A stretch of 64,000 bases of DNA from the NCBI GenBank assembly GCA_963761305.1, contig CAVXGK010000001.1, forward strand, positions 1,024,001-1,088,000, in the 5' to 3' direction. The notes under the pieces are model-generated. The model was not told where the DNA came from, made no database searches, and saw only the letters and a program-made list of their open reading frames with translations. The stretch is from an uncultured Gemmatimonadaceae bacterium. Lineage in GTDB: Bacteria; Gemmatimonadota; Gemmatimonadetes; Gemmatimonadales; Gemmatimonadaceae. The position numbers and the translations under genes are program-made. Position 1 is the first letter of the stretch; every line of letters begins with the position of its first letter. Positions 21,520-45,277 of this stretch are shown here, one piece after another.

Positions 21520-22662
21520 CTATTTGCCGATCAAGAGAATCGTGAACGACCCCGGGATCGCCGGGGCCTGACCTCCCCGCCCGCCGCCCGGCGGAGGCGG
21601 CGGAGCCGCTCCGCGCTCGACGCTCATCGTCAGGATGTGATTCGTCTTGGAGTCGAACGCGATCGTCCGTGCGCCGAGCATCGTCGGCAGGTTCTCTTCG
21701 ACCACGAAGTCCGTCGGCGAATTCTCCTTCACGACGGTGAGCGTGCCGTTGCCGTTGGTGCTGAACGCCTCCATCGTCGCCGAGTTGAACGTCGCGCCGT
21801 CGGAGCCGCCGGCAAGCGGCAGCGTCGCGAGAATCTTGCCGTCCGTCGCGCTCATCACGACGAACTTGGGTGCGGCCGGCTGCGCCGGCGGATTCCCCGA
21901 CGACGCGCACGCGGCGAACAGCACGTGGTTCTTGGCGTCCAAGGCGAGACCATTGCAGCTGCCGATGTCCGGGAACGGGTAGAACGCCGTCTTCTTCATC
22001 GTCTTGACGTCCACGACGGTGACGCCGCCTGCCGGCCGCTCCTGCATCACGACATACATCGTCCCCTTCCCGTCCGCCACGGCCTGTTCAGGCGTGCCGC
22101 CGAGGTCGATTCGACCGAGTACGGTGCCGTCCTTGGAGTCGATGACGGTGGCGTCCTTCGTCGGATGGCTGAAGATGTAGACGCGATCGTTGAACGAGTC
22201 GAAGAGGATGCCGTCGGGGCCGACGCCGGAGTCGATCGGGATGCTCTTGAGCACCGCCAACGATTTCGTGTCGAACATCGTGATTTGCGGCCGGCTGCTC
22301 GAGAAGCCGTGTCCCGATTTCGGATCGACCGCGACGCCTTGCCCCTGCGTGTTCGGCGCCGTCGGGATCTCGCCGACCAGCGTCAGCCGATCGAGGTCGA
22401 ATACGCTGATGCGCGCCACGACCGCGGGACGCTCGGGGCTCGAGTCGGTCGCCGGCACCGCGCGCACGGCACCGCGTGGGATGTAGAGACGGCGCCCCAC
22501 CGCGTCGGCGAAGATGTAGTCGGTGCCGCCTTCACCGCCGACCCGCGCCCTCGTGAGCACCTTGTACGGACCGTCGGTCGACGGCGCTTGCGCCGTAGCG
22601 GAGGCGACGGCGCAAATCGCGAGCGGCGCGGCGATCGCGAAGGCGAATACGACGTGTTTCAT
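21520..22662 (-). CDS. YncE-like beta-propeller secreted protein
   Basis: Signal peptide; GGEGG.DY, RRLY, PDGILFD, GTPEQAVADG.G, GARTIAFD. Confidence 0.82.
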   Translation of the reverse strand: MKHVVFAFAIAAPLAICAVASATAQAPSTDGPYKVLTRARVGGEGGTDYIFADAVGRRLYIPRGAVRAVPATDSSPERPAVVARISVFDLDRLTLVGEIPTAPNTQGQGVAVDPKSGHGFSSSRPQITMFDTKSLAVLKSIPIDSGVGPDGILFDSFNDRVYIFSHPTKDATVIDSKDGTVLGRIDLGGTPEQAVADGKGTMYVVMQERPAGGVTVVDVKTMKKTAFYPFPDIGSCNGLALDAKNHVLFAACASSGNPPAQPAAPKFVVMSATDGKILATLPLAGGSDGATFNSATMEAFSTNGNGTLTVVKENSPTDFVVEENLPTMLGARTIAFDSKTNHILTMSVERGAAPPPPPGGGRGGQAPAIPGSFTILLIGK

Positions 22663-22786
22663 CGGCGAATTCCCGGACGGGGAGGCAGAAGCGCGAGCGC
22701 AGGCATCCGGGCACGGTGCGGCGGCGGCGCCCCGCTGTCAAGCACGCGCGGTGGCGCCGGACAGATTGTCAGGTGGAGGACAGCCG

Positions 22787-23668
22787 CTAACCGACGCTGC
22801 GTCGCACCAGTTCGTAGTACTCGCGATCCGCGCCGACGTCACGACGCACAGATACGACGCGATAGTCGTTCGCCAGCGCCCACTGAAAGTGCTCGCGCAC
22901 CGCGAGGCGCCATCGCCGCGCCGTCGCCGGCGACAGTCGAGTCAACCCAAGAATGTCCGAGGGGACTTCGATCAACACCGCGTCCGGGTGGCGATCGCCG
23001 GGCGCAATCACGTCATCGCCCTCGCGCGGGAACGGGGAGAGGAGCGGCAGCGCGCCGTCGCCGGCCGGATGTCGCTCGACGCCGATCGGAGACGTGGGCG
23101 TGGTTACGACGAGACGATCCGTCGGCAGACCGAGGTGCAGCGGGCTCGCGGTCGTGCCGTACATGTCGGGGACGTACTCCACCACTGACGCGCCGAGCCG
23201 GTCGAAGTTGAAGTACGCGTTCTTGGCCATGAGTGGGTCGAACGACCACGAGAGGCGTCGAATCCCGAGCTTGGCCAGGGCGGACCGCTGGTACTCCTTG
23301 AGCATCCGCCCCAGCCCGAGGTTCCGAGCCGACTCGCGCACGGCGAGCATGTGCGACCAATGCGCGAGCTCACCATCGCGGACGCCGCTCACGCCGAACA
23401 CGAATCCGACGAGCGTGCCGGAGGCGTCGAACGCGCCCGCCGCGAGTCCGCCGACGTGGTCGACCACGTGCAGCAGCGTGGCCGGCACGACGTCGGCCTC
23501 GCCGAACCCCCACACCTGGCGCTGCAACTCGACGCAGTCGGCACACTCCGACATCGTGCGCAGCGGACGGATGTCGACGACCGGGCGTGCCGTCGCGTTG
23601 AGCGACGACGTCTCCGCCCCGGTGGACGATCCGGCGACGGGCACCGACAACGGCGATGAGCGGGTCAT
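22787..23668 (-). CDS. GNAT acyltransferase, COG3375 type (candidate D-amino-acid N-succinyltransferase)
   Basis: LQRQVWG, HWSHMLAV...RNLGLG..LK..Q, WSFDPL..KNA.FN..LGA....Y.PDMYG, TDRL; ATGA overlap with the S9 stop. Confidence 0.88.
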   Translation of the reverse strand: MTRSSPLSVPVAGSSTGAETSSLNATARPVVDIRPLRTMSECADCVELQRQVWGFGEADVVPATLLHVVDHVGGLAAGAFDASGTLVGFVFGVSGVRDGELAHWSHMLAVRESARNLGLGRMLKEYQRSALAKLGIRRLSWSFDPLMAKNAYFNFDRLGASVVEYVPDMYGTTASPLHLGLPTDRLVVTTPTSPIGVERHPAGDGALPLLSPFPREGDDVIAPGDRHPDAVLIEVPSDILGLTRLSPATARRWRLAVREHFQWALANDYRVVSVRRDVGADREYYELVRRSVG

Positions 23669-25920
23669 TGACTGCTCACCGCTTCGTTGCGAAGGAAGCG
23701 GCGGAAGAACGTGTCCATGCGGCCGAAGACGTAGAGCCAGCGGCTGTGCACGAGCGTCTCGTGCGTGTCGTCCGGATTCACGATCAGCTCGTAGTACACG
23801 TTGCGCGCGCGCAGCAGGTCGACGAGACCGATCGTCTGCGAGAACTCGACGTTGCGGTCGTCGTCGTTGTGCCAGATGAGCACGGGCGACTTCCATGAAT
23901 CGATCGCCGCGATCGTCGACGACTTGAACGACACGTCGGCCGTGTCGAGCGAGTTGCCCCACAGGTGCACGCCGGCCATGTCGACGCCCGCCGCGAACAC
24001 GTCGGAGTTGCGCGCCAGCGCTTGCGACGTGAGCACGCCGCCGTACGAGAGGCCCCAGATCCCGACGTGCGAGGCGTCAACGTCGGCCCGCGTCTGCAAG
24101 TATTTTCCCGCCGCGATCACGTCGCGATACTCGGCGTTGCCGCGGCCGCCAACATTCGGCGCGGTGCGGAACGACTTCCCGTAGCCGATACCGGACCGGT
24201 AGTTCACCGACATCACGACGTAGCCCTGGCTCGCCAGCCACTCGTTCACCGCGTACGCCGTGGCGTAGAAATCCATGTAGTGGTAGCCCAGCAGCATCTG
24301 ACGGACCGGACCGCCGTGCACGAAGATGATCGCCGGCCGCTTCTCACCCGGTTTGAGATCCTTCGGCAGGAAAAGCTGGTTGTGGAACTCGAAACCGTCG
24401 TCGGCCTTGAGCACGACGGCCGTCGGCGCGACTTGCGCCGCCGTCGGGAACTCGGCGGGCAGCGTCGGGAAGATCACGCGGCGTGGGCTCGTGCCGCTCG
24501 AAGTACCGACGTCGGTCGACACGATGCCGACTCCCAGCGGCCTTGTGCCGGCCGACGTCAGTACCGCGACCTGCTTGCCCGACGAGAGCGGCGCCGGATA
24601 CATCTCGATCTCGTCGCCGGTGGTGATCTGCACGGCCGGACCGCCCGCGGTCGGCACCTTCCATAGATGTCGGCGATCGATGTCGCCGGCGTTGGTCGCG
24701 TAAAAGAGCGTGCCGCCATCGCGCGACAGCGCGGTGGTCTCGACGGCGCCTTCGCCCGGCGTGAGCTCGACCGGCGTCGTCGTGTTCCCGTCGACGGCGA
24801 CCGAGTACCAGCGGATCCACTCTTCCGGCTCCTGCTGGAAGATGACGTGCGTGCCCGCCCAGGCGATGCCGGCGATGTTCGGGAATCCCTTGTCGTTCGG
24901 CTGGTTGTGCCAGAACTCGTGCGCTTCGCAGCCGCCGGCCGGCGTCGGACACCCGGCGATGTCGGCGACCATGAGAGAAATCGTATATCCACCCGTGAAC
25001 GCGGCGCGGTACATGCCGTCGGCGCGACCTTCTCCGCCGCCTGCACCACCGGCACCGCGACCGCCGCGCCCGGCACCGCGTCCGCCGCGACCCGCTGCGC
25101 CGGGACCGCCCGGGTTGCCGAGGCTTCCGTCGCCTATTTGCGCCTGCTGACCGAACGGCAGACCCGGGCGTCGCACGAAGGCGAGGCGCTTGCCGTCCGC
25201 CGACCACGTCGGGCTCGCATCGATGTCGACGCTCGGCGCGACGTAGTGGAGCTTGCGACTCCGCACGTCGTACACGCCGATGAGGGCGTGATTGTCGCGC
25301 GCGCTGACGAACGCGAGCTTGGATCCGTCGGGCGACCAGCGGGGGTTCGCGTTGCGCCCCCATTCCTTTATATAGGGCTGCTGGTCTTTCTCGGCCGGCG
25401 CCGTGGTGCGCGGAACGACCTGATACCTATATATCTCGCCGTCGCGCGAGAACACGACCGCGTGACCATCCGGCGAGAGCGCGGGACCCGCGCCGGAGCC
25501 CAACCGCCACGTGCCGCTTCCGTTCGTGTACGCCGCCCAGATCGCGCGATCCGGTCCTTGCGGGTCGCTGCTCGGATTGGCGAGCCAGCCGACGCGATTC
25601 GGTTCGCTGCCGCGCACGAAGGTGACGAGCGATCCGTCGTCAGAAATCTCAAGCTCGGAGAGAATGACGCCGTCGTCGTCGGTGAATTTGGTGAGACGCA
25701 CCGGCTTGAAGTCCGGCGCCGCGGCCGTGTAGATGTTGCGGAGTCCCTTCTCGTACGAGATCCAGGCGATGCGGTCGGCCTTCTTCGCCGATACGAGCTC
25801 GGACGGATACGCGGGCGACAGAAACTGCCCGATCGTCGGCTTGGCTTGCGCGCCGAGCGAAACCAGCGGCGCGACGACGAGTGTCGTCGCGAACCAAGCG
25901 CGAATGTGGGACCGCCGCAT
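23665..25920 (-). CDS. S9 family prolyl oligopeptidase/dipeptidyl peptidase
   Basis: Signal peptide; PD40 repeats; HGGP, GIWGLSYGG nucleophile, DDRNV, H. Confidence 0.93.
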   Translation of the reverse strand: MRRSHIRAWFATTLVVAPLVSLGAQAKPTIGQFLSPAYPSELVSAKKADRIAWISYEKGLRNIYTAAAPDFKPVRLTKFTDDDGVILSELEISDDGSLVTFVRGSEPNRVGWLANPSSDPQGPDRAIWAAYTNGSGTWRLGSGAGPALSPDGHAVVFSRDGEIYRYQVVPRTTAPAEKDQQPYIKEWGRNANPRWSPDGSKLAFVSARDNHALIGVYDVRSRKLHYVAPSVDIDASPTWSADGKRLAFVRRPGLPFGQQAQIGDGSLGNPGGPGAAGRGGRGAGRGGRGAGGAGGGEGRADGMYRAAFTGGYTISLMVADIAGCPTPAGGCEAHEFWHNQPNDKGFPNIAGIAWAGTHVIFQQEPEEWIRWYSVAVDGNTTTPVELTPGEGAVETTALSRDGGTLFYATNAGDIDRRHLWKVPTAGGPAVQITTGDEIEMYPAPLSSGKQVAVLTSAGTRPLGVGIVSTDVGTSSGTSPRRVIFPTLPAEFPTAAQVAPTAVVLKADDGFEFHNQLFLPKDLKPGEKRPAIIFVHGGPVRQMLLGYHYMDFYATAYAVNEWLASQGYVVMSVNYRSGIGYGKSFRTAPNVGGRGNAEYRDVIAAGKYLQTRADVDASHVGIWGLSYGGVLTSQALARNSDVFAAGVDMAGVHLWGNSLDTADVSFKSSTIAAIDSWKSPVLIWHNDDDRNVEFSQTIGLVDLLRARNVYYELIVNPDDTHETLVHSRWLYVFGRMDTFFRRFLRNEAVSSQ

Positions 25921-25933
25921 CTACCCTCCCCCG

Positions 25934-27124
25934 TTAGGGAACGCGAATCAACTCGTTCTGTAATGGAACGCCGCCCTTGACCGCGACGGGCGGTGTGTGT
26001 GCGCATTTGATGACGGCCTGACCGCTGTTCGCGGAGATGCCGCACCGGCCGACGACGTCGAAGTTCATCGCGTAGGGAATGCCCTCCGACGAAAGAAACG
26101 TCGGACCGTCTGCAATCTGAAAATGGACGTGCGGCTCCGTGGAGTTCCCGGAGTTGCCGAGCAGCGCGATGACCTGCCCGCGCTTGACGTGGTCGCCGAC
26201 CTTCACGCGCAGCGATCCGGGCTGGAGGTGCGCGTACAACGCGTAGCGCCCATTCCCGATGTCGATCGCCACGTAATTTCCGCCGACGGTGACCATCGTG
26301 ATCGGCACGGCACGCGAGTTGGCGCCCGGTACGTTCTGCGGAATGCTGTCCTTGGTCGCGGCGATCACGCCGTCGGCCACGGCCATCAACTGCGTGCCGT
26401 AGGCGTAGTAATTCTCGTTCTTGGCCGGATCGCCGTGGTGCGAACTTCCCGTCGAATCGAGTTGCAGGAAGTCGATCGCGAAGCGCTGGCCGATCGCCGT
26501 GTGTCCGTCGAGGCCGAGCACGAGCCGCCGGTGGCCCGACGAGTTCGACGGTCCGTTGAACGCCGCCCACTCACCGTGAAACGGCGCCGAGATCTGCGCC
26601 AGCCCGGTGAAAACGGGAATCGTGGTGCCCTCGAGGACAACGTCACTCGAATCGGCGCCGACTCGACGCAGGGTGAGCCGGTGGCTCAGCGTCTCCGGCG
26701 GACGATTCGCATGGACGGGCATCCATATGTAGACGTACGCGCGAACGCCGGCCGGGAGCTGCAAGCGCTCCGACGTCGGCAGGCATTCGACGGCCGGCCG
26801 GTCTGTTTGCTCCTTGCGACACGTCGGCGGTGCGACGCGCCCGAACGCCGGCACGAGCGCGCTGTCGGCGATGCTGAACATGACTGCGTGACTGCTCGCG
26901 TCGAGAACGTCCACGCGACGCAAGTACATCGCCGTCGGCGTGAGATTCGTGACGTGCAGCTCGTACGACAGGAACGCGCCCGAGTCGCTCATCGCGACCG
27001 TCGGCGGCTTGGGCACGCTGAACTCGATCGACGGCGGGATCTGCGTCTGTGCCGCGGCGAGTGCCGGCGCGACGGCGCCGGCGACGACGAGCACCAACGC
27101 CGAACCGAGCCCGGCTCGGCTCAC
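25934..27124 (-). CDS. M23 family metallopeptidase, secreted
   Basis: QRFAID, AVADG, GNYV.I, YAHLQ.GS..VK.GD.VKRGQ, GNSGNS..PHVHF; GTGA overlap. Confidence 0.88.
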   Translation of the reverse strand: MSRAGLGSALVLVVAGAVAPALAAAQTQIPPSIEFSVPKPPTVAMSDSGAFLSYELHVTNLTPTAMYLRRVDVLDASSHAVMFSIADSALVPAFGRVAPPTCRKEQTDRPAVECLPTSERLQLPAGVRAYVYIWMPVHANRPPETLSHRLTLRRVGADSSDVVLEGTTIPVFTGLAQISAPFHGEWAAFNGPSNSSGHRRLVLGLDGHTAIGQRFAIDFLQLDSTGSSHHGDPAKNENYYAYGTQLMAVADGVIAATKDSIPQNVPGANSRAVPITMVTVGGNYVAIDIGNGRYALYAHLQPGSLRVKVGDHVKRGQVIALLGNSGNSTEPHVHFQIADGPTFLSSEGIPYAMNFDVVGRCGISANSGQAVIKCAHTPPVAVKGGVPLQNELIRVP

Positions 27125-28725
27125 GGTGTGCCGCCTCGACCGCCACGCCCTGCTCCGCCCCGACCGGCGCTCTTGCGATTGAGCAACGTCACGTCGCCGC
27201 CGATGCCGAACCACAGGCCGGTGACCGTGTTGTCGGGCGCAATCTCGAACTTGATGTTGATCTGTCCCGCCGGTGAGCCGGGCGGCAGCAGCCAGCGGAA
27301 GTTGTTGGCGTTCCAGAATTGAAGCGGCCCGTGCCACTCGCCTCGCGTCAGCTCGAGCTGGCCTTCGATGAGCGACACCGTCGCGTCACCGTACAAGCTG
27401 TCCGTGTACGTGCCGACGAACGCGTTGATCGGGAGCGGCGGCTTGGCGTCCTTGGGATGCTCGGTGGCCTGGGCGGCCGCGACCGAATCGGCGCGTTTCC
27501 GCTGCACGGCGTAGCGCGCGTACGATTCGGCGCTGAGATCCTTGTTCGGCAAGCCGAGCGCGCGGTCGAAGATGTAGTGCATGACGATCGCCGGCAGTTG
27601 CGCGCTTTGCATGTTGCTCAACACCGCGACGCCGACGTGCTGCTCCGGCAGCATCCCGACCGCGGCCGTCATGCCGGTTGTGTTCCCGCCGTGCTGCCAC
27701 ATGAGCTGCCCGTGATAGTCCTCGACGAACCAACCCATGCCGTACGAGCTGAAGTGCGTCACCGGAATCGTGTCGCGCGCGGCCGCGGGATCGCCGCCTC
27801 CACCACGCCCGGCCGGCGGAGCGCCAGACACGGCGAGGATTTGCGGTGAGTGTATCTCACGAAGCGCCGTGGAATTGACGAGACGCTTTCCGTTGACGAC
27901 GCCGTCGTTCAACTGAAAGCGCAGCCACTGCGCCATGTCTTTCGCATTGGAGAGAATCGCGCCAGCCGGTCCGATGTTGTCGCCGTCGAACATCGGTTCG
28001 ACGAGCGCCGTGTCGTGATCCAGCGTGTGCGGCCGGGCCACGTTCGTCGTGGCGAGGCCCTTCGACGTCGTGACCGACGACGTCATGCCGAGCGGACCGA
28101 AGATGCGCTGCGGGATGAGCGCGTCCCACGTACTGCCGGCCGCCTTTCCGGCCGCTTGGCCGGCCGCCAGGAACATCATGTTCTGATACGAATACTTGGA
28201 TCGGAACGGCGACTCCGGCTTCAGGAACCGGATCCGGTGCAGAATCTCGTCGCGATTGAAGCCCGAGCCGAGCCAGACCAGCTCACCACGCGCGATGCCG
28301 CTGCGATGCGTGAGCGCGTCGCGAAGCGTCACCTCGGCGTTCGCCTCCGGGTCGTACAGCCTGAAGCCCGGCAAGTAGTCGGCGAGATGGGTGTCCCAAT
28401 TCATCTTGCCGTCGGTGACCATCATCGCGACCAGCGTCGCGGTGAACGCCTTGGAGCTCGACCCGATCTCGAACAGCGTCTGGTCGTTCACCGGCGTGTG
28501 GTTCTGGGCCGACAGCGTGCCGAATCCCTTGGTGTAGATGACGGTGTCGTTGCGCACGATCGCCACGCTCATCCCCGGGATCTTCCAGGTCTGCACGGCT
28601 TTCGCGATGTACGCGTCGAGTCCCGCGTACGGCTCCTGTGCTCGGGCGAACGACGCCGCCCCGAGCGTGACGAACGCCGCGGCGAGAGTCGCTCTCGCCG
28701 GGCGCATGGATGGAAACGTGGTCAC
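27121..28725 (-). CDS. Beta-lactamase-fold serine hydrolase (S12/AmpC-like) with DUF3471 domain
   Basis: FEIGSSSK (SxxK), LTHRSG, YQN (YxN), HGG; GTGA overlap with the susD stop (alternative ATG at 28707). Confidence 0.92.
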   Translation of the reverse strand: MTTFPSMRPARATLAAAFVTLGAASFARAQEPYAGLDAYIAKAVQTWKIPGMSVAIVRNDTVIYTKGFGTLSAQNHTPVNDQTLFEIGSSSKAFTATLVAMMVTDGKMNWDTHLADYLPGFRLYDPEANAEVTLRDALTHRSGIARGELVWLGSGFNRDEILHRIRFLKPESPFRSKYSYQNMMFLAAGQAAGKAAGSTWDALIPQRIFGPLGMTSSVTTSKGLATTNVARPHTLDHDTALVEPMFDGDNIGPAGAILSNAKDMAQWLRFQLNDGVVNGKRLVNSTALREIHSPQILAVSGAPPAGRGGGGDPAAARDTIPVTHFSSYGMGWFVEDYHGQLMWQHGGNTTGMTAAVGMLPEQHVGVAVLSNMQSAQLPAIVMHYIFDRALGLPNKDLSAESYARYAVQRKRADSVAAAQATEHPKDAKPPLPINAFVGTYTDSLYGDATVSLIEGQLELTRGEWHGPLQFWNANNFRWLLPPGSPAGQINIKFEIAPDNTVTGLWFGIGGDVTLLNRKSAGRGGAGRGGRGGTP

Positions 28726-29999
28726 GGGGTTTTCGAGATGTTCGGGTTGTTGATACGCTCGACGTCGGGAAGCGGGAAGCAGGTCTCCGTTCCATACGTC
28801 GCGCCACCGGGATACGCCGTACCGGTGGCCGGGGTGAACGCCAGGTTGTATCGCCGCAGATCGCCGAGGCGATATCCCTCGAGGAAGAGCTCGCGTCGGC
28901 GCTCTTCGATGATTTGGGTCTTGAGCGTCGCGGCCGTCTGACCAGTTCCGTCGAACGCGGGAAGCCCGGTGTGCGTCGCGCGCGCCGCGTTGATCGCCGC
29001 CACCGATCCCGTGAGATCGTTCGCCGCCGCCTTTGCCTCGGCGACGATCAACTGCGCTTCGGCGTAGCGCGCGATCGGCATGACCGTTGTCAACGCCGGA
29101 TACTTGTCGGGCGTGAAGATCGGCGAGCTCGGGGCCGTGCCGGTCTTGCCTGTGTTCGTGACGGCCACGCGAGGATCCGGAGCGCCATTCACCGTGAGGC
29201 CGCGGAAGCTCGCGTCGACGGTGGCGAAGTTGCTGTTGTTGATCGTGAAGAACGAAAAGTTCTCGCGACGGATGTTGATGCCGTCGGTGGACATGTTGAC
29301 GACGAATCCGGGTTGAATCGTCGCGGCGTCTGTTCCGGCCGCGGCGACATTGCCGAGGTCGAGTTGGGCGCGCGCCCGGCCGAGCGTGGCGAAACTGACG
29401 GTCGTCGGATCCGATGCGCTCGTCGCGGCGACGATCGCCGAGTCGAAACGGGACTTGGCTTCGGCGAAGACCTGCGCCGGCTGAAGCTCCGGGCCCAGGT
29501 TGATTGCGGCGGTGCACATGCCTTCGCCCATCAGCACGAGGCTGTAGCCGGCGTACGCATAAGACTGCCCGATCAGCTTCGTCCGGTTCACGCCGGTGGG
29601 CATCTGGGCATCGGTCCAGCCCTTCAGATACCCGATCGCGGTGTCAGCCGAGCGGCGCGCCACGGAGAGTGGTGTGTAGATCGCCGGCTGTTGGTTCGCG
29701 GCGCAGGTGCCGGTCCCGTAGGACGCGCCGGTCGTCAGTGTGCGGCGGTCGTAGTCGAAGTTGGCGGCGTTGGAGATGGCGTCGGCCAACTCGTCCGTCA
29801 GGATGCCGGAGCCGACGACGTACCGAGAGAAGGCGCATTCGAAATCGCTGATCGCGCCATTGACGACGAGCTGGGCGTTGAGGGGCGTGTAGACGGTCGC
29901 CGTCGACAACGCGCCGGGGTTGGACTGTGTGAGCGTGGTGAGATCGCTGCAGGCGGCGACCGCCACCAGCGTGATGCCGAAGGCCAGTGTTCGTCGCAT
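28722..29999 (-). CDS. RagB/SusD family lipoprotein
   Basis: Lipobox VAAC; DPR; RYAEAQLI.AEA; ERRRELFLEG.RLGDLRR; follows susC. Confidence 0.92.
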   Translation of the reverse strand: MRRTLAFGITLVAVAACSDLTTLTQSNPGALSTATVYTPLNAQLVVNGAISDFECAFSRYVVGSGILTDELADAISNAANFDYDRRTLTTGASYGTGTCAANQQPAIYTPLSVARRSADTAIGYLKGWTDAQMPTGVNRTKLIGQSYAYAGYSLVLMGEGMCTAAINLGPELQPAQVFAEAKSRFDSAIVAATSASDPTTVSFATLGRARAQLDLGNVAAAGTDAATIQPGFVVNMSTDGINIRRENFSFFTINNSNFATVDASFRGLTVNGAPDPRVAVTNTGKTGTAPSSPIFTPDKYPALTTVMPIARYAEAQLIVAEAKAAANDLTGSVAAINAARATHTGLPAFDGTGQTAATLKTQIIEERRRELFLEGYRLGDLRRYNLAFTPATGTAYPGGATYGTETCFPLPDVERINNPNISKTP

Positions 30000-35692: not shown

Positions 35693-35704
35693 TTGGTATA
35701 CCAA
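35693..35704. promoter_or_regulatory. Perfect palindrome TTGGTATACCAA, putative GntR/FadR operator within the leftward promoter
   Basis: Minus strand reads TTGACG-17 bp-CAAGAT, with the palindrome in the spacer and -10 region; divergent from gntR. Confidence 0.75.
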
Positions 35705-35771
35705 CCCGCGAGCGTCAAGAGTCGTCACCGACGTCTTGCTCCTTCCCGCGGCCGCGCCTTACCATTCCAAT

Positions 35772-36586: not shown

Positions 36587-39500
36587 ATGTCCCGTCGTCT
36601 CGTTCCGCTCCTCGCGGCGCTCGCCCTGCCCGCCATCGCGACGACGGCCGTCGCCCAGGGCACACGCCTGCTTCGCCATCCGGCGATCAACGGCAATTCG
36701 ATCGCCTTCGAGTACGGGGGCGACCTCTGGGTGGCGACGCGCGCCGGCGGCCAGGCTCGGCGTCTCACCGCCACGCCCGACGTCGAGACCGATCCGCACT
36801 TCTCGCCCGACGGATCGCAAATCGCCTTCACGCGCACGTCGAACGGCAACACCGACGTGTACGTCGTGCCGACGGCCGGCGGCGAGCCGGTTCGCCTCAC
36901 CTTCCATCCGGGCCCCGACCGCGCCATCGGCTGGACGCCCGACGGAAAACGCGTCGTCTTCGCCAGCGAGCGCGTGAGCGAGCCGCAGTCGTCGTACATG
37001 CGGATGTTCACCGTGCCCGCGACCGGCGGTTTCGAGGAGCCGATGCCGATGCCGCGCGCGTTCAGCGGCACGTACTCCCCCGACGGAAAACAGTTCGCCT
37101 ACGAAGAGATCTCGACGGCGTTCGTTCCGGAGTGGTACGAGATGAGCATGTGGCGCCATTACCGCGGCGGCCGCACGCATCCGATCAGCGTCATGGACCT
37201 CGCGTCGAACGCCGTGCAGAAGCTGCCGTGGCAGAACAGCAACGACACCGATCCGATGTGGGTCGGCAACACGGTCTACTTCCTCTCCGACCGCAACTAC
37301 ACGCGCAATCTCTTCTCGTACGACGTGGCGTCGAAGCAGGTCAAGCAGCTCACCCACCACGACGATGCCGACGTCATGACGGCGTCGGCCGGATCGGACG
37401 CGATCGTCTACGAGCAGAACGGCGTCATCCACCTGTTCGACATCAAGACGGGCCAGGCCAAACCGCTGACAATCGACGTCGTCGGCGACTTCCCGTGGGC
37501 GCGGCCGCAGTTCAAGCGCGTCGCGGCGATGATTCGCGACGCCAGCCTCTCGCCGACCGGCGTGCGCGCGGCGTTCGAAGCGCGCGGCGACATCTTCACC
37601 GTCCCCGCCGACAAGGGCGACTGGCGCAATCTGACGAAAACGCCCGGCGCGCACGATCGCGATCCGGTCTGGTCGCCCGACGGCGCGCAGCTCGCCTGGC
37701 TCTCCGACGCCAAGGGCAACGACGAGCTGATGATCGCCGAGCAGTCGGGGCTCACCGCTGCGCGCGCGGTCGCGCTTCCGGGCCCGGGATACTTCTCCGA
37801 TCTCGCCTGGTCGCCGAACGGCAAGACGCTGCTCGTCGACGACAACCATCTGAATCTCTGGACCATCGACGTCGCCACCGGCAAAGCGACGAAGCTCGAC
37901 GCGGATCTCTTCTACACGCCGGGACGCAACTTCGAAGCGGTGTGGTCGCCCGACTCGCGCTGGGTCGCCTACACAAAGAGTCTCGACAGCCATCTGCGCG
38001 CCGTGTTCGTGCGTTCGCTCGCCGAAGCGCAATCGCGCCAGCTCACCGACGCACTCGCCGACGCGATATCGCCGAGTTTCGACGCCAACGGCAAGTATCT
38101 CTACTTCCTCGCCAGCACCGACTACGGCCCGCGCTCGGCGTGGCTCGAGATGAGCGCCGTCGATCGGCCGTCGCGCCGCTCGGTGTATCTCGCGGTGCTC
38201 AACGCGAACGAGCCGTCGCCGCTGCTCCCCGAGGCCGGCGACGAGCCGGCCGGCGGCCCCGCGCCGACGCTCGCCGGTCACGCGAAGGCGGATTCGGTGC
38301 AGATCGACTTCGCGAACATCAACCAGCGCGTTTTGAGTCTCGACGTGCCCGCGGGCGACTACGACGGTCTCGCCGCCGGTCCGGCGGGCACGATCTTCTA
38401 TTCGGAAACGATCAACGAGGGCGGCAGCCGCACGAACGTCCGGTTGCAGCGCTATCAGCTTCGCTCCGCCGGCGCCGCCGCCCCGGCCGGCGCGTCGACG
38501 TTCCTCGAGAGTATTCGGTCGTTCACGCTCTCGGCCGACCGCAAGAAGTTGCTCTACTCGTCGGGACTCGGCCCGGGAGCGCGGTGGGGCATCGTGGCGA
38601 CGGACCGGCCCGCCAAGGTCGGCGACGGCGCGATCAACGTCGCGCAGCTCGAGAGCTGGGTCGATCCCCGCGCCGAGTGGGCCGAGATCTTCCGCGAAGC
38701 GCTGCAACAGCAGCACGAGTTCTTCTACGACGCCAAGCTGCACGGCGCTGACTGGAAGGCCGTCGCGGCGAAGTACGCGCCGCTCGTCCCCTTCGTGAAT
38801 CATCGCGCCGATCTCAGCTATCTGATGGCGCAGACCGGCGGCGAGCTGGTCGTCGGACACTCGTACATCTCGGGTCCGGGCGACATGCCCGGCGACGCGC
38901 CGGTGAGCGTCGGGCTTCTCGGTGCGGACTACGCGGTGGAGAACGGCCACTATCGCATCAAGCGCATCTTCAGCGGCGAGAACTGGAATCCCGACCTGCG
39001 CGCGCCGCTCAGCGCGCCGGGCATTCAGGTGAAGGACGGCGACTATCTGCTCGAGGTGAACGGCCGCCCAGTGGCTCCGCCGACGAACGTCTACTCGGTG
39101 TTCGAGGGCACGGCGGGCCACCAGATCGTAATTCGTGTCAACGACGCGCCGACGATGGAAGGATCGCACGTCGTGACGGTCGTTCCAGTGGCGAGCGAGG
39201 ATGGGTTGCGCACGCGCGCGTGGATCGAGGACAACCGCCGCAAGGTCGACGAGATGTCGCATGGGCGGCTGGCCTACGTGTGGCTCCCGAACACGTCGAT
39301 CCCCGGCTACAACGCGTTCACGCGCTACTTCTACTCGCAGCAGGGCAAGGAAGGCGCGGTGATCGACGAGCGTTACAACCACGGCGGGCTCGTCGCCGAC
39401 TACATCGTGAACGAGCTGGATCGCGTGCCGATGGGCTACTTCGCGATGCGCGACGGGCAGACGTGGTCGTCGCCGGCAGCCGGCATCTACGGTCCGAAGG

Positions 39501-39880
39501 TGATGATCGTCAACGAGTCGGCCGGGTCGGGCGGCGACGCGTTGCCGTACTACTTCCAACTGCGCCACATCGGCCCGCTCGTCGGCACGCGCACGTGGGG
39601 CGCGCTCGTCGGCACCCTCGGCGTGCCGCCGACGATGGACGGCGGCGGCATGACCGCGCCGGCGTTAGCGTTTTATGATCTGAACGGCCGGTGGGCGGTG
39701 GAGAACGAGGGCGTGACGCCGGAGGTCACGGTCGAGTACTCGGCCGACGCGGTGAACAAGGGCCACGACCCGCAGCTCGAGCGCGCGGTGCAGGAGGCGC
39801 TCAAGCTTCTCGAACAGCATCCGGTCAAACACATGCCGCGCCCCACGCCGATCGATCGCGTCAAGCCGCCGCAGCACTAG
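36587..39880 (+). CDS. S41 family tricorn protease (beta-propellers, PDZ, catalytic domain)
   Basis: RLLRHP, YRGG, GEL..GHSY, GLLGAD, IDERYNHGG, AGSGGD, GTRTWG, VENEGV.P, DPQLE. Confidence 0.95.
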   Translation: MSRRLVPLLAALALPAIATTAVAQGTRLLRHPAINGNSIAFEYGGDLWVATRAGGQARRLTATPDVETDPHFSPDGSQIAFTRTSNGNTDVYVVPTAGGEPVRLTFHPGPDRAIGWTPDGKRVVFASERVSEPQSSYMRMFTVPATGGFEEPMPMPRAFSGTYSPDGKQFAYEEISTAFVPEWYEMSMWRHYRGGRTHPISVMDLASNAVQKLPWQNSNDTDPMWVGNTVYFLSDRNYTRNLFSYDVASKQVKQLTHHDDADVMTASAGSDAIVYEQNGVIHLFDIKTGQAKPLTIDVVGDFPWARPQFKRVAAMIRDASLSPTGVRAAFEARGDIFTVPADKGDWRNLTKTPGAHDRDPVWSPDGAQLAWLSDAKGNDELMIAEQSGLTAARAVALPGPGYFSDLAWSPNGKTLLVDDNHLNLWTIDVATGKATKLDADLFYTPGRNFEAVWSPDSRWVAYTKSLDSHLRAVFVRSLAEAQSRQLTDALADAISPSFDANGKYLYFLASTDYGPRSAWLEMSAVDRPSRRSVYLAVLNANEPSPLLPEAGDEPAGGPAPTLAGHAKADSVQIDFANINQRVLSLDVPAGDYDGLAAGPAGTIFYSETINEGGSRTNVRLQRYQLRSAGAAAPAGASTFLESIRSFTLSADRKKLLYSSGLGPGARWGIVATDRPAKVGDGAINVAQLESWVDPRAEWAEIFREALQQQHEFFYDAKLHGADWKAVAAKYAPLVPFVNHRADLSYLMAQTGGELVVGHSYISGPGDMPGDAPVSVGLLGADYAVENGHYRIKRIFSGENWNPDLRAPLSAPGIQVKDGDYLLEVNGRPVAPPTNVYSVFEGTAGHQIVIRVNDAPTMEGSHVVTVVPVASEDGLRTRAWIEDNRRKVDEMSHGRLAYVWLPNTSIPGYNAFTRYFYSQQGKEGAVIDERYNHGGLVADYIVNELDRVPMGYFAMRDGQTWSSPAAGIYGPKVMIVNESAGSGGDALPYYFQLRHIGPLVGTRTWGALVGTLGVPPTMDGGGMTAPALAFYDLNGRWAVENEGVTPEVTVEYSADAVNKGHDPQLERAVQEALKLLEQHPVKHMPRPTPIDRVKPPQH

Positions 39881-40126: not shown

Positions 40127-41854
40127 TCAGTTCTTGACCGACTTCCCCGGCCCCCAGAGCACCTTGCCGGCCTTCGCGCCGGTATGCCTGCCGTGGTCGA
40201 TCGTCACGACGCCGTTGACGAGCACCCATTCGATGCCGGTCGGGAATTCCATCGGCTTCTCGTACGTCGCTTTGTCTTCGATCGTGTCGTAGTCGAAGAT
40301 CGTCACGTCGGCCCAGTTGCCGACTTCGATCGTGCCGCGGTTGGCGAGTCGCATGCGCGCGGCGGGCCAGCCGGTCATCTTGCGGATGGCTTCGGTCAGC
40401 GTGAGCACGTGACGCTGCTTGACGTATTTCGCGATTACCCGCGGGAAGTTGCCGAAGCTCCGCGGGTGCGGGAGGCCCGTCGCGTCGGGCACGCCGATTT
40501 GCGCCACGGCGCCCGCGTCGCTGCCGATGGACGTCCACGGAAAGCGCAGCGCGGTCTCGATGTCGGGCTCGCCCATCATATGGTAGATCGCCATCACGCG
40601 ACCGTTGCCCTGCGCGACGAGGTCCCACGCCGCGTCAGCCGGATCCTTGTTTTGCGCGCGCGCGATCTGCGCGATCGTCTGCTGCTCGTACTTCGCGTTG
40701 TCCTGATTGCGCGCGTTGACGAGGACGATGCCGTTCCATCCGCCGGCCGACTCGATGATGTTCCACCACCCTTCCGAGCCCGTGGTCACTTCCCGCTTGA
40801 GCCGCGCGCGAATCTGAGGATTCGCTAAACGCGCCTTGAGCGAATCCGTGCCGCCCTCCTGCGCCCAGCTGGGAATCGTCGCCTCGAGGCCCGTGCCGCC
40901 GGCCGTGTAGACGTACATGTCGGCCGCGATGTCGTCGCCGCGTGCGCGCGCCGCGTCGACGACCAGACGCACCGAATCCATCAGCACGCCCCACCCCGGC
41001 TGGTACGCGACCTTGAGATGGAAGATCTCGGCGGGCAGTCCGGCCTTCTCGCTGATCGTCACCAGCTCGTTGATGGCGCCGATGATTCCCTGCCCTTCGT
41101 CCCGCATGTGGCTGGCGTACGTGCCGCCGTACTTCGCCGCCGACTTCGCGACCTCGACCAGCTCGTCGGTCGTCGAGTAGCTCGACGGCGGATAGATGAG
41201 CGCCGTCGTCATCCCCATCGCGCCGCCGCGCATCGCCGTGTCCATGATCGCGCGCATCCGATCCAGCTCGGCGGCGTCCGGCTTTCGTGCCGACATGCCG
41301 AGTACTGCGACGCGCGCCTGCGTCTCGCTGAAGTAGCTCCCGAAGTTGATGCTGATGCCCTGTCGCTCGAGATTCGTGAAGTATTCGGCGACGCGGCCCG
41401 CGGGCACCGGCGTTCCGCCTTCGCCGCCGATCGCCGTCGTCACGCCTTCGCGCAGTTTGTTCTCGGCGAGGCCGTTGCGCGGCAGCACGCCGCCCGACTG
41501 ATCCATCATGTCGATCCAGCCCGGACTCACGAACTTGCCGGCGGCGTCGATCTCCCTGCGGCCGCGTGCGGTGATTTTGCCGATCCTGGCGAACCGGCCG
41601 TCCTTGATCGCCACGTCGGCGAAGATGACCGGATTCCCTTGCCCGTCGATGACGCAACCGTTGCGGATGACGACGTCGTAGAGCGTATCGGTCGACGTCG
41701 GCGGTGCCGCGCGGCGCGATGGACAGGACGCCGCACTCGCCATCGCGGTCGACGCGACCGCGGGCGTCGGCGCGCCGGCCGGTGTGCGCGACGATCCACC
41801 GCACGCGGCCGAGCCGGCGAGAAGCATCCACGCGCCGCGCGGCCGAGACATCAT
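40127..41854 (-). CDS. N-acyl-D-amino-acid deacylase (D-aminoacylase) family amidohydrolase, probable lipoprotein
   Basis: DVVIRNG.VIDG, PGWID, GVTT..GG, ALIYPP, HMRDE, HLK, GSD, PHPRSFGNFP; N-terminal AAC. Confidence 0.9.
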   Translation of the reverse strand: MMSRPRGAWMLLAGSAACGGSSRTPAGAPTPAVASTAMASAASCPSRRAAPPTSTDTLYDVVIRNGCVIDGQGNPVIFADVAIKDGRFARIGKITARGRREIDAAGKFVSPGWIDMMDQSGGVLPRNGLAENKLREGVTTAIGGEGGTPVPAGRVAEYFTNLERQGISINFGSYFSETQARVAVLGMSARKPDAAELDRMRAIMDTAMRGGAMGMTTALIYPPSSYSTTDELVEVAKSAAKYGGTYASHMRDEGQGIIGAINELVTISEKAGLPAEIFHLKVAYQPGWGVLMDSVRLVVDAARARGDDIAADMYVYTAGGTGLEATIPSWAQEGGTDSLKARLANPQIRARLKREVTTGSEGWWNIIESAGGWNGIVLVNARNQDNAKYEQQTIAQIARAQNKDPADAAWDLVAQGNGRVMAIYHMMGEPDIETALRFPWTSIGSDAGAVAQIGVPDATGLPHPRSFGNFPRVIAKYVKQRHVLTLTEAIRKMTGWPAARMRLANRGTIEVGNWADVTIFDYDTIEDKATYEKPMEFPTGIEWVLVNGVVTIDHGRHTGAKAGKVLWGPGKSVKN

Positions 41855-43350
41855 CGGCGGACGCGCGCGAAGGTGATTCCCGAAATGCGCACGCCCGACA
41901 CGCCGCCGGTGCCGTCCGGAGTAAAGGTCAGCGCGACCTGCTCGCGCGGATTCGCGGCGTGCGTCCGGAACGAGTCGATGTCCCAGTGATCCAACTCGAC
42001 TTCGGGATCGGTGACGACGCGCGCCCGCAACTTTCCGTTCGCGTTCGTCACGGTGACGGTTCCGTACGCCGAATCGACGAACGTGCCGGCGTACTTCTCG
42101 ATCGCGACCGACGCCGGACGCTCTACGTGCTGCGCCGCTTGTACCACCGGACCGGCGCTCTGCCTCATGCGCGCGAATAGCGCGCTGACCTCCGCGCTCC
42201 AGTCTCGCGACGGGCCGCCGTTGTAGAGATCGAACGCGCGGTACATGAGCGCGTGTCGCAGCTCCGCGTGATCGAGGTTCTCCAGGACGTAGACGCCGAG
42301 GTGCTCGTTCGGCATGAGGCCGATGATGGCGCACTGGCCGTCGATGCTGCCGGTGTGCATCCACACCTGCTGGCCCGCGTAGTCCTGGATGAACCAGCCG
42401 AACCCGTAGCTGAAGAAGTCGGGCCGCGACAGTTGAAGCGCCGGGTACTCTTCCATCGGCGCTTGAATTTGCGGCGTGATCAACTCGCGGAACGTCGACG
42501 CCTTGATGAGGCGCTTGTCGCCGACTCGGCCGCTGTCGAGGATGAAGCGCATCCACTTCGACATGTCGCTCACGCTCGACCAAACCGACCCGGCGGGCGC
42601 AATGAGGTCCGTCGAGCGCATCGGAACGGCGCGAACGCTGTCGCCCGCCAGGACGTGCGGTACCGAGACGTTCGCTTTGCCGCCAATTTCCGACACGAGC
42701 GCTTCGGTCTCGTTCATCCCAAGCGGTCCGAAGATGTGCGAACGGACGAACGCCTCCCACGACATCCCCGACGCGCGCTCGACGATCGTTCCGCTCAAGG
42801 CGTACATCACGTTCTGATACGACCAGTTCGACCGGAAGGACGACTCGGGTTTGATGTAGCGCAGCCCGTGAATGATCTCCGGCAGTGTGTAGTGCCACCG
42901 CGCCCAGAAGAGGTCCGTACCCGGCAAGCCGCTGCGATGCGTGAGCAGGTCACGAATGGTCAACTCGCGCGTCGCGTAGGGATCGTACAGCTGGAGCTCG
43001 GGGATGTAGTCCGTGACGTGGTCGTCCCAATGGATCTTCCCTTCGTCGACGAGCATGGCGAGCGACGCGGACGTCATCGCCTTCGTCGTCGACCCGATCG
43101 CGAAGCGCGTGTGCTCGTCGGCCTTCTGACTCTTGCCGATCTCGAGCACGCCATAGCCCTTGGCGAAGACGAGCGAGTCGTCCTTCACGACGGCGATCGC
43201 GAGCGCCGGCACCTTCCAATCGCGGGCCGCTTGGGCGACATAGCGGTCGAACGCCGCCCAGTCAGGAGCGGTTGCCTTTTGAGCGCTCGCCGGCGCGACC
43301 GCGGCGAGCGCCGCGACGGCCATGGCAGTCAAACGCAAATTGCTTCGCAT
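41851..43350 (-). CDS. Beta-lactamase-fold serine hydrolase with DUF3471 domain
   Basis: FAIGSTTK, LLTHRSG, YQN, HTG; signal peptide. Confidence 0.92.
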   Translation of the reverse strand: MRSNLRLTAMAVAALAAVAPASAQKATAPDWAAFDRYVAQAARDWKVPALAIAVVKDDSLVFAKGYGVLEIGKSQKADEHTRFAIGSTTKAMTSASLAMLVDEGKIHWDDHVTDYIPELQLYDPYATRELTIRDLLTHRSGLPGTDLFWARWHYTLPEIIHGLRYIKPESSFRSNWSYQNVMYALSGTIVERASGMSWEAFVRSHIFGPLGMNETEALVSEIGGKANVSVPHVLAGDSVRAVPMRSTDLIAPAGSVWSSVSDMSKWMRFILDSGRVGDKRLIKASTFRELITPQIQAPMEEYPALQLSRPDFFSYGFGWFIQDYAGQQVWMHTGSIDGQCAIIGLMPNEHLGVYVLENLDHAELRHALMYRAFDLYNGGPSRDWSAEVSALFARMRQSAGPVVQAAQHVERPASVAIEKYAGTFVDSAYGTVTVTNANGKLRARVVTDPEVELDHWDIDSFRTHAANPREQVALTFTPDGTGGVSGVRISGITFARVRR

Positions 43351-43402
43351 GGATCCTCGAAATGTCTTGTTGACGGTCTGCCGGTCCACCGGTCCACTTC
43401 TC

Positions 43403-45277
43403 TCAACGGGCGTTCACCACGGACACCTGCACGTAACTCGCCGCGTCGCGCGACCGGAAGATGCGATGCGTCTGCGCCTTGAAATCGGAATCTTTGGCCT
43501 CGAAGATGTTGGCCACGTAGGTCTGCGGGTTGCGGTCGATCAGCGGGAACCAACTGCTCTGCACTTCGACCATGATGCGGTGTCCCTTGCGGAACTTGTA
43601 ATCCTGCGTGTGGAGATCGATCACGTATTCGTCGACGTGGTTCGGCGTGATCGCCTCGGGATGCTCGAAGCTCTTGCGAAACCGGCCGCGGAAAACATCG
43701 TTGGCGACCATGAGCTGGTAGCCGCCGAGCTTCGCGTCGCCCTGGCTCGAATCCGGATACACATCGATGAGCTTCACGACCCAATCGGCGTCGGAACCCG
43801 TGGTCGACGCGAACAGATGCGCCGTGATGTCGCCGGCGATCACGACGTCGTCGGAGAGCGGTTCCGTCTCCCAGTTGATGACGTCGGGGCGTCCGGCGAG
43901 GAATCGCTGATCGTCGGCGAGCCAGCGCGACCACGTCGAACCCTCGCCGTACGTCGGCAGGATCGGCCGCGGACGATAGGGCACTGGGTTCGCCGGATCG
44001 GACACGTACGAATCGGCCGCCTTCGGCGTACGGTCGGCCGACGCGGTGAACGACAGCTTGTGATCGGCCTGCGTGTAGAGACGCCGCGGCGTGACGTCGG
44101 CTTTCGGCGGCCAGCTCGCGTGCTGCTCCCACTTGTTCGTTCCCGCTTCGAACGTCGTCGCCTCGGCGAGGTTCATCTGGCCGACGCCCTTGAGCCAGTA
44201 CGCGAAGAACGGCGCCTGGATGTCGCGTCGATAGTCCGGCGACGTGGCCGACCCGAAGTCGAGATTGCCGAGCGTCCTGCCGCTGGGCCCACTCCACCCA
44301 CCGTGATTCCACGGGCCGACGACGAGGAAGTTGAGGTGGTTTGTGTCGTGCTTCTCGAGCAGCTCATAGATGGTGATCGGTCCGTAGAAGTCCTCCTGGT
44401 CCCACCAGCCCGCGACGCTGAGCGTCGGCACGGTCACGCGATCCACGTACGGAGCGACAGCCTGTTTCTGCCAGAACGCGTCGTAGCTCGGATGGTTCGC
44501 GAAGTTGTTCCAGCTCGGAATGTTGCCGTGCAGGTATTTCTCGTTGACGTGGGCGAGCGATCCGAGCTTGAGGTACCAGTCGTACGTGTCGGAGTCGTTG
44601 AACGCGAACGGCGCGCGTTCCTTGTTCGTCTCCATCATCACCGCGTACTCGAACCCATAGCTCAACCGGAACGCGCCGTTGTGGTGAAAGTCGTCGCCGA
44701 TGAACATGTCGGCGGGCGACGCCTGCGGCGACACCGCCTTGAGCGCCGGGTGCGGATCGAGCATCGCGACCACGGTGAGCCATCCCGGATACGACACGCC
44801 CATCATCCCGACGCGCCCGTTGTTGTGCGGCACGTTCTTGATCAGCCAGTCGATCGTGTCGTACGTGTCGGTGCTTTCGTCGATCGCTTTCGGATCCTTC
44901 TTGTTCCGCATTTGGCGCAGCATCACGAACTGTCCTTCCGACTTGTAGCGTCCGCGAATGTCCTGATGGACGAAGATGTACCCCTCGCGCGCCAGCTCCG
45001 CGTACGCGCCGCGGAACGTCGCCTCGCCGCCTTCGATGCCGTACGGCGTGCGGATCATGATGATCGGCAGATTCCCGGCGAATCCGCGCGGCACGAAGAT
45101 GTTGGTGTGCAGCTTCACCCCGTCGCGCATCGGGACCATCGTCTCCGTCTTGTCGAACGTCGGAATCGGCGGCGCGCCTTCACTCCCCGGCTCCTGCGCC
45201 CGCGCGAGCGCCGAGACGAGGATGGCCGCGGCGATGACGAGGCGGGGCACGGATAGAACCACTGGACGCACGCGCAT
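43403..45277 (-). CDS. CocE/NonD family hydrolase (alpha-amino acid ester hydrolase / GL-7-ACA acylase-like, S15)
   Basis: MRDGVKL, RTPY, QDIRGRY.SEG, GVSYPG, WDQED, GPWNHG, SWFP..DRNPQ. Confidence 0.93.
   Translation of the reverse strand: MRVRPVVLSVPRLVIAAAILVSALARAQEPGSEGAPPIPTFDKTETMVPMRDGVKLHTNIFVPRGFAGNLPIIMIRTPYGIEGGEATFRGAYAELAREGYIFVHQDIRGRYKSEGQFVMLRQMRNKKDPKAIDESTDTYDTIDWLIKNVPHNNGRVGMMGVSYPGWLTVVAMLDPHPALKAVSPQASPADMFIGDDFHHNGAFRLSYGFEYAVMMETNKERAPFAFNDSDTYDWYLKLGSLAHVNEKYLHGNIPSWNNFANHPSYDAFWQKQAVAPYVDRVTVPTLSVAGWWDQEDFYGPITIYELLEKHDTNHLNFLVVGPWNHGGWSGPSGRTLGNLDFGSATSPDYRRDIQAPFFAYWLKGVGQMNLAEATTFEAGTNKWEQHASWPPKADVTPRRLYTQADHKLSFTASADRTPKAADSYVSDPANPVPYRPRPILPTYGEGSTWSRWLADDQRFLAGRPDVINWETEPLSDDVVIAGDITAHLFASTTGSDADWVVKLIDVYPDSSQGDAKLGGYQLMVANDVFRGRFRKSFEHPEAITPNHVDEYVIDLHTQDYKFRKGHRIMVEVQSSWFPLIDRNPQTYVANIFEAKDSDFKAQTHRIFRSRDAASYVQVSVVNAR

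Follow-up and report, generated by a model that had tools for sequence, protein, structure and literature searches.

Organization of the locus

We analyzed a 64,000-nucleotide stretch of DNA from an uncultured Gemmatimonadaceae bacterium (the window; coordinates are 1-based within it), which at 21520–45277 carries a gene block joining a SusC/SusD outer-membrane importer to an N-succinylamino-acid racemase (NSAR), a GNAT acyltransferase and a set of hydrolases. We read this block as a putative locus for the utilization of peptides that contain D-residues. The host genome (G000, with contigs C1 and C2) comprises 5.2 Mb and is 93% complete. Pfam and NCBIfam scans recovered every gene that an earlier note, written from the sequence alone, had named in the leftward operon and its flanks, in the same order and on the same strand.

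The leftward operon, on the minus strand, encodes in order a racemase of the NSAR/o-succinylbenzoate synthase (OSBS) subfamily (34471–35616; 381 residues, without a signal peptide; TIGR01928 over cut-off), an APC-family amino-acid permease predicted to lie in the inner membrane (33116–34474; 452 residues; PF13520), a SusC/RagA TonB-dependent transporter of about 1008 residues (30003–33029, with an alternative overlapping start at 33119; TIGR04056, 440 bits against a cut-off of 368), a SusD/RagB lid lipoprotein with an invariant Cys17 (28722–29999; 425 residues), an S12 serine peptidase with DUF3471 (27121–28707; PF00144 and PF11954), an M23 metallopeptidase (25934–27124; PF01551), an S9 peptidase of the dipeptidyl- or acylaminoacyl-peptidase type (23665–25920; PF00326) and a GNAT acyltransferase of an NSAR-linked family (22787–23668), which by its fold and NSAR context is a predicted D-amino-acid N-succinyltransferase. 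The three hydrolases are predicted to be exported. The tight packing described earlier, with four overlaps, stands for the gaps of 3 bp (between susC and susD) and 13 bp and for three 4-bp overlaps, but the fourth overlap depends on the start chosen: each of the two remaining junctions is either an overlap or a gap (of 86 and 14 bp).

Divergent from this operon, on the plus strand, are genes for a GntR/FCD regulator (35772–36569; PF00392 and PF07729) and a tricorn-type S41 protease predicted to be exported (36587–39880; Pfam), and the gap between NSAR and gntR holds the palindrome TGGTATACCA (35694–35703), a predicted GntR operator. A further minus-strand operon encodes a CocE/NonD hydrolase of the alpha-amino-acid ester hydrolase (AEH; aminopeptidase) branch (43403–45277), a second S12 peptidase with DUF3471 (41851–43350; Pfam) and a D-aminoacylase-like amidohydrolase with an altered metal site, predicted to be exported or a lipoprotein (40127–41851); two weak, degenerate copies of the palindrome lie upstream of it (45317–45339). 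GC content is even over the window, and the block therefore shows no sign of foreign origin.

The predicted inversion enzymes

The best PDB matches of the window racemase are the NSARs of Amycolatopsis and Deinococcus (E 1e-89). Seven of its residues (K164, K166, D192, E217, D242, K266 and R269) are the same in all 96 aligned homologues and correspond to K161, K163, D189, E214, D239, K263 and R266; the catalytic K163 and K263, the metal ligands D189, E214 and D239 and the second-shell R266 are thus all present. This residue set comes from the accessible parts of PMC12006748 and 10.1101/2022.03.03.481873, which also give the make-up of the Geobacillus D-to-L pathway as GNAT, NSAR and an M20 desuccinylase. 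The window GNAT has the GNAT fold, and among the 80 loci of its nearest relatives (the GNAT itself being called in 77 of 80 by a simple gene caller) NSAR was present in 66 and M20 in 32.

The earlier note, which cited the three-enzyme pathway of Geobacillus kaustophilus, missed that the M20 gene is absent from this copy. It lies on the other contig (C2:299089–300273), directly behind a GNAT paralog and with no NSAR between the two (the pair spans C2:298218–300273, equivalent to L001:10219–12274), in a place where other members of the genus have GNAT-NSAR-M20. The same GNAT-M20 pair occurs in five close relatives, four of which have a second NSAR elsewhere, as does the host genome. GNAT and NSAR are both duplicated in the host; its second NSAR (C1:96649–97785) is 72% identical to the locus copy, falls in the same tree clade and has no adjoining GNAT or M20.

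The importer and the hydrolases

The block has the features of a SusCD utilization locus, namely adjacent susC and susD genes, exported depolymerases (judged by their hydrophobic N-termini), an inner-membrane transporter and a regulator. It is not a polysaccharide utilization locus in the strict sense: no carbohydrate-active enzymes were found in the window block, and none recurred among 67 representatives of the 91 unassigned flanking proteins from the 48 related loci described below. SusCD pairs of the peptide type include RagAB, BT2261-64 and, as listed, ButCD. The window SusD is 10–19% identical to solved SusDs, and one of the 13 SusD hits in the host genome has an NSAR or GNAT nearby. The closest SusCD paralog (C2:343162–350725; SusD 44%) is transcribed divergently from genes for an S13 DD-peptidase-like protein and an APC permease. 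For the window permease, the best NCBIfam model is an L-type amino-acid transporter, below cut-off.

Active-site motifs are largely intact among the hydrolases. SxxK, YxN and HxG are all present in the two S12 enzymes, and the best PDB match of the S12 family profile is Pab87 (E 7e-50), followed by the esterase IS11 (E 7e-45), Flp and ClbP. In the accessible text of PMC2651629, Pab87 prefers D-Ala-pNA and trims D-Ala from muropeptides, and other S12 members are described in the available part of PMC12903863 as cutting lipopeptides at D-L bonds and cleaving peptide antibiotics; since the window matches are distant and an esterase ranks second, such specificity cannot be transferred. The M23 residues H198, D218, H332 and H334 are invariant in 17 of 17 homologues, the S9 enzyme retains GLSYGG and its Asp and His motifs (best PDB match dipeptidyl aminopeptidase IV, E 5e-25), and the catalytic Ser and His motifs of tricorn are intact. 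The CocE protein matches 4pf1 (E 2e-156), AEH (E 4e-148) and cocaine esterase (E 1e-54) and conserves Ser-Tyr, Asp, His and the acidic cluster.

The D-aminoacylase-like protein matches D-aminoacylase best in the PDB (E 7e-67), and its H248, H278 and D445 are invariant in 38 of 38 homologues. We take the metal ligands of the Alcaligenes-type N-acyl-D-amino-acid deacylase to be H67, H69, C96, H220, H250 and D366; the last three are kept here and the HxH and Cys are replaced, so that deacylase activity is uncertain. A conserved Glu lies near the replaced ligands in 33 of 38 members of this subfamily (40127–41851), which possibly has a different metal site or reaction.

Export was judged by a crude test for a hydrophobic N-terminus (cut 1.8; the window deacylase scores 1.55, below the cut). 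Such an N-terminus was found in 0 of 86 NSAR, 3 of 60 GNAT and 1 of 40 M20 homologues, and in 82–100% of the homologues of SusC, SusD and the hydrolases. The predicted split, with hydrolases and SusCD outside and NSAR, GNAT and M20 inside, is the one a pathway of extracytoplasmic cutting and cytoplasmic inversion would need, and it would keep the D-deacylase apart from cytoplasmic N-succinyl-D-amino acids.

Conservation within Gemmatimonadota

Half of the genus genomes searched (12 of 24) carry a GNAT of the locus type; the whole run from NSAR to GNAT is present in nine of these 12 and a part of it, at a contig end, in three. The CocE-S12-deacylase operon converges on tricorn in eight of nine extended regions, and in the ninth that place holds an S13, a deacylase, S12s and a second SusCD. 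Across the phylum, we measured the distance from GNAT to SusD in a 400-genome draw, counting genomes with a located GNAT. Among the matches listed, GNAT lay within 15 kb of SusD in 14 of 20 cases for the strongest matches (E up to 1e-100), in 6 of 39 for a middle band and in 0 of 41 for weaker ones, against a chance level of about 1%; 60 GNAT and 24 SusD matches fell outside the listing, and three further GNATs were taken from retrieved loci. Related genomes do not count as independent, and contig fragmentation depresses the counts. Twenty genomes of the draw, from four families, carry the gene set (the unpublished genomes G127 and G184 enter in denominators only), and the linkage is specific to this SusD clade.

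We assembled 48 related loci (windows of up to 20 kb, not fully de-replicated) by requiring GNAT or NSAR together with SusC or SusD at 35% identity or more, so the counts for SusC (47), GNAT (47), SusD (43) and NSAR (40) are given by construction. The remaining genes were S12 and GntR (34 each), APC permease (30), deacylase (19), tricorn and M20 (17 each), S9 and CocE (16 each), M23 (12), S13 (5) and a class-A-like hydrolase (2). After two duplicates were dropped, 46 loci showed 29 core gene orders, partly through truncation of the loci; the gene set has been kept through rearrangement. What recurs is GNAT, NSAR, the APC permease, GntR, one SusC/SusD clade, S12 and other hydrolases, and often M20, and the interchangeable neighbors belong mostly to D-recognizing families (S12, D-aminoacylase-like, M23, S13, class-A-like). 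A lack of conserved synteny, which the earlier note had named as grounds for abandoning its proposal, was thus not what we found.

A copy also exists in a cultured strain. On plasmid 2 of Gemmatirosa kalamazoonensis KBS708 (NZ_CP007130.1, about 661–682 kb), GNAT-NSAR is divergent from SusC, SusD (69% identical), S9, S12, CocE, two more S12s, GntR and tricorn, and the divergent gap contains a palindrome with one mismatch; this copy may overlap the 400-genome draw and was not counted as independent. Among the related loci, L077, L078, L085 and L056 contain occasional extras (a threonine-dehydratase-like pyridoxal-phosphate enzyme, an S51 peptidase, a CAAX protease and an alpha/beta hydrolase), and the frameshifts in all genes of L002, L005 and L010 are most likely assembly errors, not decay.

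A predicted GntR operator and regulon

The palindrome TGGTATACCA recurs upstream of GNAT, NSAR, gntR, tricorn, S12 or SusC in many loci. In the window it overlaps a weak sigma-70-like promoter of the NSAR operon (TTGACG at 35718–35713 and a -10-like CAAGAT at 35695–35690) that falls below the threshold of a consensus scan. A matrix trained on 38 sites, from loci L053 onward, gave 33 sites of at least 11 bits in the 5.2-Mb genome. The site of the locus ranks second; the first lies at C1:50729, between divergent S12 (470 residues) and S9 (698 residues) genes (C1:49239–52971, equivalent to L196:7240–10972), which are candidate distant members of the regulon. The best model for this distant S12 is a D-aminopeptidase, below cut-off. 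Held-out loci had the site in 10 of 10 cases with GntR versus 3 of 12 without it, and the corresponding figures in the training group were 27 of 46 and 10 of 65. The two copies upstream of the CocE operon have one and two mismatches (12.8 bits). The palindrome resembles what we take to be the FadR consensus and, in the manner of an operator for a FadR/FCD-type GntR regulator, is kept upstream of the putatively regulated genes. These results suggest that TGGTATACCA is likely a GntR operator and that the locus is probably co-regulated.

The same enzyme set outside the phylum

The GNAT matches 48 plasmid records, of which we examined ten, nine of them from outside Gemmatimonadota and the tenth being the Gemmatirosa kalamazoonensis plasmid described above. 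In these nine, NSAR adjoins or lies near the GNAT in all cases, S12 and M20 are present in five each (M20 by annotation), a deacylase in four, and an ABC or MFS importer in eight. The Bacillus sp. F19 cluster, for example, contains a dipeptide ABC importer, NSAR, GNAT, M20, S9, S12, a class-A-like hydrolase and a D-aminoacylase. Identities to the window proteins are 41–47% for NSAR, 28–37% for GNAT, 25–30% for S12 and 26–38% for the D-aminoacylase. The SusD profile had no match in five Acidobacteriota genomes that carry GNAT-NSAR, so that the combination of NSAR, GNAT and SusCD, which the earlier note had proposed to look for in both phyla, recurs in Gemmatimonadota and was not recovered in these five. 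One record, L177 (CP031730.1), is labeled a Stenotrophomonas rhizophila plasmid but shares its gene order with Lysinibacillus L174, carries a comX gene and is probably mislabeled Bacillota DNA.

Three other features of the window and genome deserve mention. A YncE-like beta-propeller gene (21520–22662, minus strand; weak NCBIfam matches) lies 124 bp downstream of the operon and is probably a bystander; it is present in 6 of the 48 related loci. Small PadR-like genes are paired with long MacB/FtsX-type permeases at 2197–5189, 9564–16397, 46270–51993 and 62524–64000, and two of these permeases, adjoining the locus, were confirmed by Pfam. At C1:716888–722610, two long open frames (1345 and 1597 residues) with adenylation-type domains are possibly a small nonribosomal peptide synthetase/polyketide synthase cluster.

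Proposed function and alternative explanations

From gene content and conservation, we lean toward a reading in which the locus combines SusCD import of D-residue peptides, periplasmic cutting and cytoplasmic D-to-L inversion, and serves a broad diet. The SusD/SusC pair, whose transporter class is clear, would carry oligopeptides across the outer membrane, a cargo suggested by the neighboring genes. The S12 and D-aminoacylase-like enzymes may cleave bonds at or beside D-residues and take off acyl caps, and tricorn, S9, M23 and the AEH-type enzyme, assigned by family, active site and N-terminus, would trim the remaining peptide in the periplasm. Amino acids would presumably enter through the APC permease. 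By homology, context and the Geobacillus chemistry, GNAT would then succinylate the D-amino acid, NSAR would racemize it, and the M20 enzyme encoded on the other contig would free the L-amino acid. GntR would repress the locus and the distant S12/S9 pair via the conserved site TGGTATACCA. The diet is likely rich in hydrophobic D-residues, as in nonribosomal peptides and lipopeptides, with D-Ala-ended wall peptides possible in view of the M23 and S13 enzymes. A broader and more tentative proposal, which we hold as a possibility short of even odds, is that this SusCD clade of Gemmatimonadota selects D-residue peptides, that D-peptidases of the GntR regulon act on them and that the products are assimilated by way of NSAR, making the locus the prototype of a D-peptide utilization locus.

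Several observations weigh against this interpretation. In a confident predicted model, the fold neighbors of SusD do not separate peptide from glycan binders: the top matches are uncharacterized, and glycan binders score at least as high as RagB and BT2263. SusC lies near 20 of the 80 nearest GNATs, and the inversion module therefore often works without SusC. The window GNAT is placed in the NSAR-linked family through gene neighborhoods in other phyla rather than through an alignment with the Geobacillus enzyme. With no M20 gene in the window, the operon departs from the single-operon arrangement of the Geobacillus type, and M20 is likewise absent from 31 of the 48 related loci (windows of up to 20 kb). 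The best single-sequence PDB match of the S12 enzyme is the esterase IS11, and the S12 family includes esterases and beta-lactamases as well; D-specificity is not a family trait of tricorn, S9 or the AEH branch; and the D-aminoacylase-like protein has lost three of six canonical metal ligands. The operator, finally, is absent from 19 of 46 GntR-bearing loci outside the held-out set, the M20 gene at C2:299089 has no site of at least 11 bits, and the CocE sites are weak, with no site of one mismatch or fewer upstream of CocE in eight relatives that have the operon.

The most direct challenge is that the enolase-family gene is simply menC, encoding OSBS for menaquinone synthesis, and that its neighborhood is accidental. 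NCBIfam names it o-succinylbenzoate synthase, and a genome that is 93% complete could be missing genes. However, no menD, menB or menE gene scored over cut-off in the host genome, whereas the same models did so in 7, 7 and 4 of 14 control genomes, respectively, and the futalosine route is represented by an mqnC gene over cut-off and two PF02621 genes. Judged by this gene content, the host does not need OSBS for menaquinone, the situation in which NSAR function is expected according to the accessible text of 10.1101/2022.03.03.481873. The earlier note had offered a sole menC of a men pathway as a way its proposal could fail, and this did not materialize. Together with the conserved linkage of the gene set, these findings effectively refute a menC identity, whose probability we regard as negligible.

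The other alternatives concern what the locus is for. Specialization for peptidoglycan debris, with stem peptides and cross-bridges imported, cut by M23, S13 and S12 and their D-Ala inverted, would fit the intact M23, the S13 DD-peptidases in 5 of 48 loci, the activity of Pab87 on muropeptides noted above and the S13 and APC genes beside the closest SusCD paralog. Yet none of the 67 flanking representatives is a NagZ, amidase, NlpC/P60, LdcA, AnmK or MurQ protein, the cluster itself (windows of up to 20 kb) lacks these and a dipeptide epimerase, and the host genome has its murQ-anmK genes, three NlpC/P60 genes and a dipeptide-epimerase-like gene at other positions. M23 is present in a mere quarter of the loci (12 of 48), and characterized NSARs, as far as the available text of PMC12006748 describes them, act mainly on hydrophobic substrates, not D-Glu or diaminopimelate. 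We consider this specialization unlikely and prefer a broad D-peptide diet to peptidoglycan alone because no muropeptide-recycling enzyme flanks the loci; the earlier proposal of a D-residue-peptide machine gains from the conserved gene set and NSAR residues, from the shared predicted operator and from the occurrence of the enzyme set in other phyla, and loses its peptidoglycan emphasis. We give still less credence to a general, RagAB-like oligopeptide-uptake locus in which GNAT and NSAR clear a minor share of D-residues from protein debris. Tricorn, S9 and AEH-type enzymes are indeed general peptidases, the genome has many paralogs (27 SusC-like, 17 S9-like and 13 tricorn-like matches), and half of the genus genomes lack the locus-type GNAT, but the constant partners of the SusD clade are GNAT, NSAR, S12, GntR and APC, with tricorn and S9 in about one-third of the loci, and the best distant operator site adjoins an S12 gene. 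A main role in defense, with destruction of nonribosomal peptide antibiotics or beta-lactam-like compounds and inversion as detoxification of the released D-amino acids, seems improbable. It could draw on the S12 D-peptidases that cleave lipopeptides and peptide antibiotics (PMC12903863, as cited above) and on the AEH-type and class-A-like hydrolases in the loci; against it, uptake of the substrate through a dedicated importer and an amino-acid permease fits feeding, the flanking genes include no conserved efflux gene, and beta-lactamase models all score far below cut-off.

Relation to known systems

NSAR is a much-used biocatalyst with an unclear natural substrate supply, SusCD ligands outside Bacteroidota are almost unknown, and the diet of Gemmatimonadota is an open question; because the locus is conserved, apparently co-regulated and present in a cultured strain, all three can be addressed together. 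If our favored interpretation is correct, it would identify a way in which soils recycle D-residue peptides such as peptide antibiotics and wall debris. If the prototype proposal also holds, the abundant Gemmatimonadota of soils and sediments would be specialized feeders on nonribosomal peptides, lipopeptide antibiotics and D-rich necromass, and NSAR would gain a natural substrate supply across phyla. We found no report in the open literature of SusCD with NSAR or of the wider cluster, nor a paper on clusters joining NSAR-GNAT with peptide ABC or MFS importers, although subscription papers, including Sakai 2006 and Odokonyero 2018, may show part of the former; the accessible portions of PMC7431475 and PMC12516957 contain nothing on natural context.

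Taken singly, D-to-L inversion, SusCD loci and D-peptidases all have precedents. Relative to the Geobacillus pathway, the locus shares the NSAR subfamily with all catalytic residues, an NSAR-flanking GNAT family and an M20 gene, which is found beside the GNAT paralog in the genome and inside 17 of 48 related loci; it differs in sitting within a SusCD uptake locus that also encodes exported hydrolases, a permease and GntR, in having M20 in trans and in the duplication of GNAT and NSAR. Like the SusCD utilization loci of Bacteroidota (polysaccharide utilization loci, RagAB, BT2261-64, ButCD), it has tandem susC-susD, periplasmic depolymerases, an inner-membrane monomer transporter and a local regulator, but it belongs to another phylum, has no glycoside hydrolases and is tied to a stereo-inversion module. 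Its S12 enzymes share SxxK, YxN and HxG with the D-stereospecific peptidases Pab87, ClbP, alkaline D-peptidase, Lip3/Lip7 and BogQ/TriF, from which they are distant.

The mlrCADBEF cluster of Sphingomonadales, which degrades the D-residue nonribosomal peptide microcystin and other peptides (PMC6256522 and the accessible part of PMC10467064), likewise groups a transporter, the SxxK peptidase MlrB and the D-aminoacylase MlrF. Compared by description and family, mlr has no described NSAR/GNAT or SusCD, and a Pfam scan of the window block turned up no gene of the MlrA or MlrC families, with neither M81 nor CAAX-family members present; one CAAX protease family occurs in two flanking genes of related loci. 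Further counterparts are the annotated NSAR-GNAT clusters of Bacillus sp. F19, Deinococcus spp., Streptomyces sp., Arthrobacter sp. and Lysinibacillus, in which these enzymes are accompanied by inner-membrane importers and by regulators of the RpiR or another type instead of SusCD, APC and GntR. Since the same enzymes occur in records from Bacillota, Deinococcota and Actinomycetota, the set is widespread, and what Gemmatimonadota have is a version of it framed by SusCD, APC and GntR. New here are this SusCD-fed form of a known D-to-L pathway, its conserved palindrome TGGTATACCA, the enzyme set with ABC or MFS importers in other phyla and the copy in cultured Gemmatirosa kalamazoonensis.

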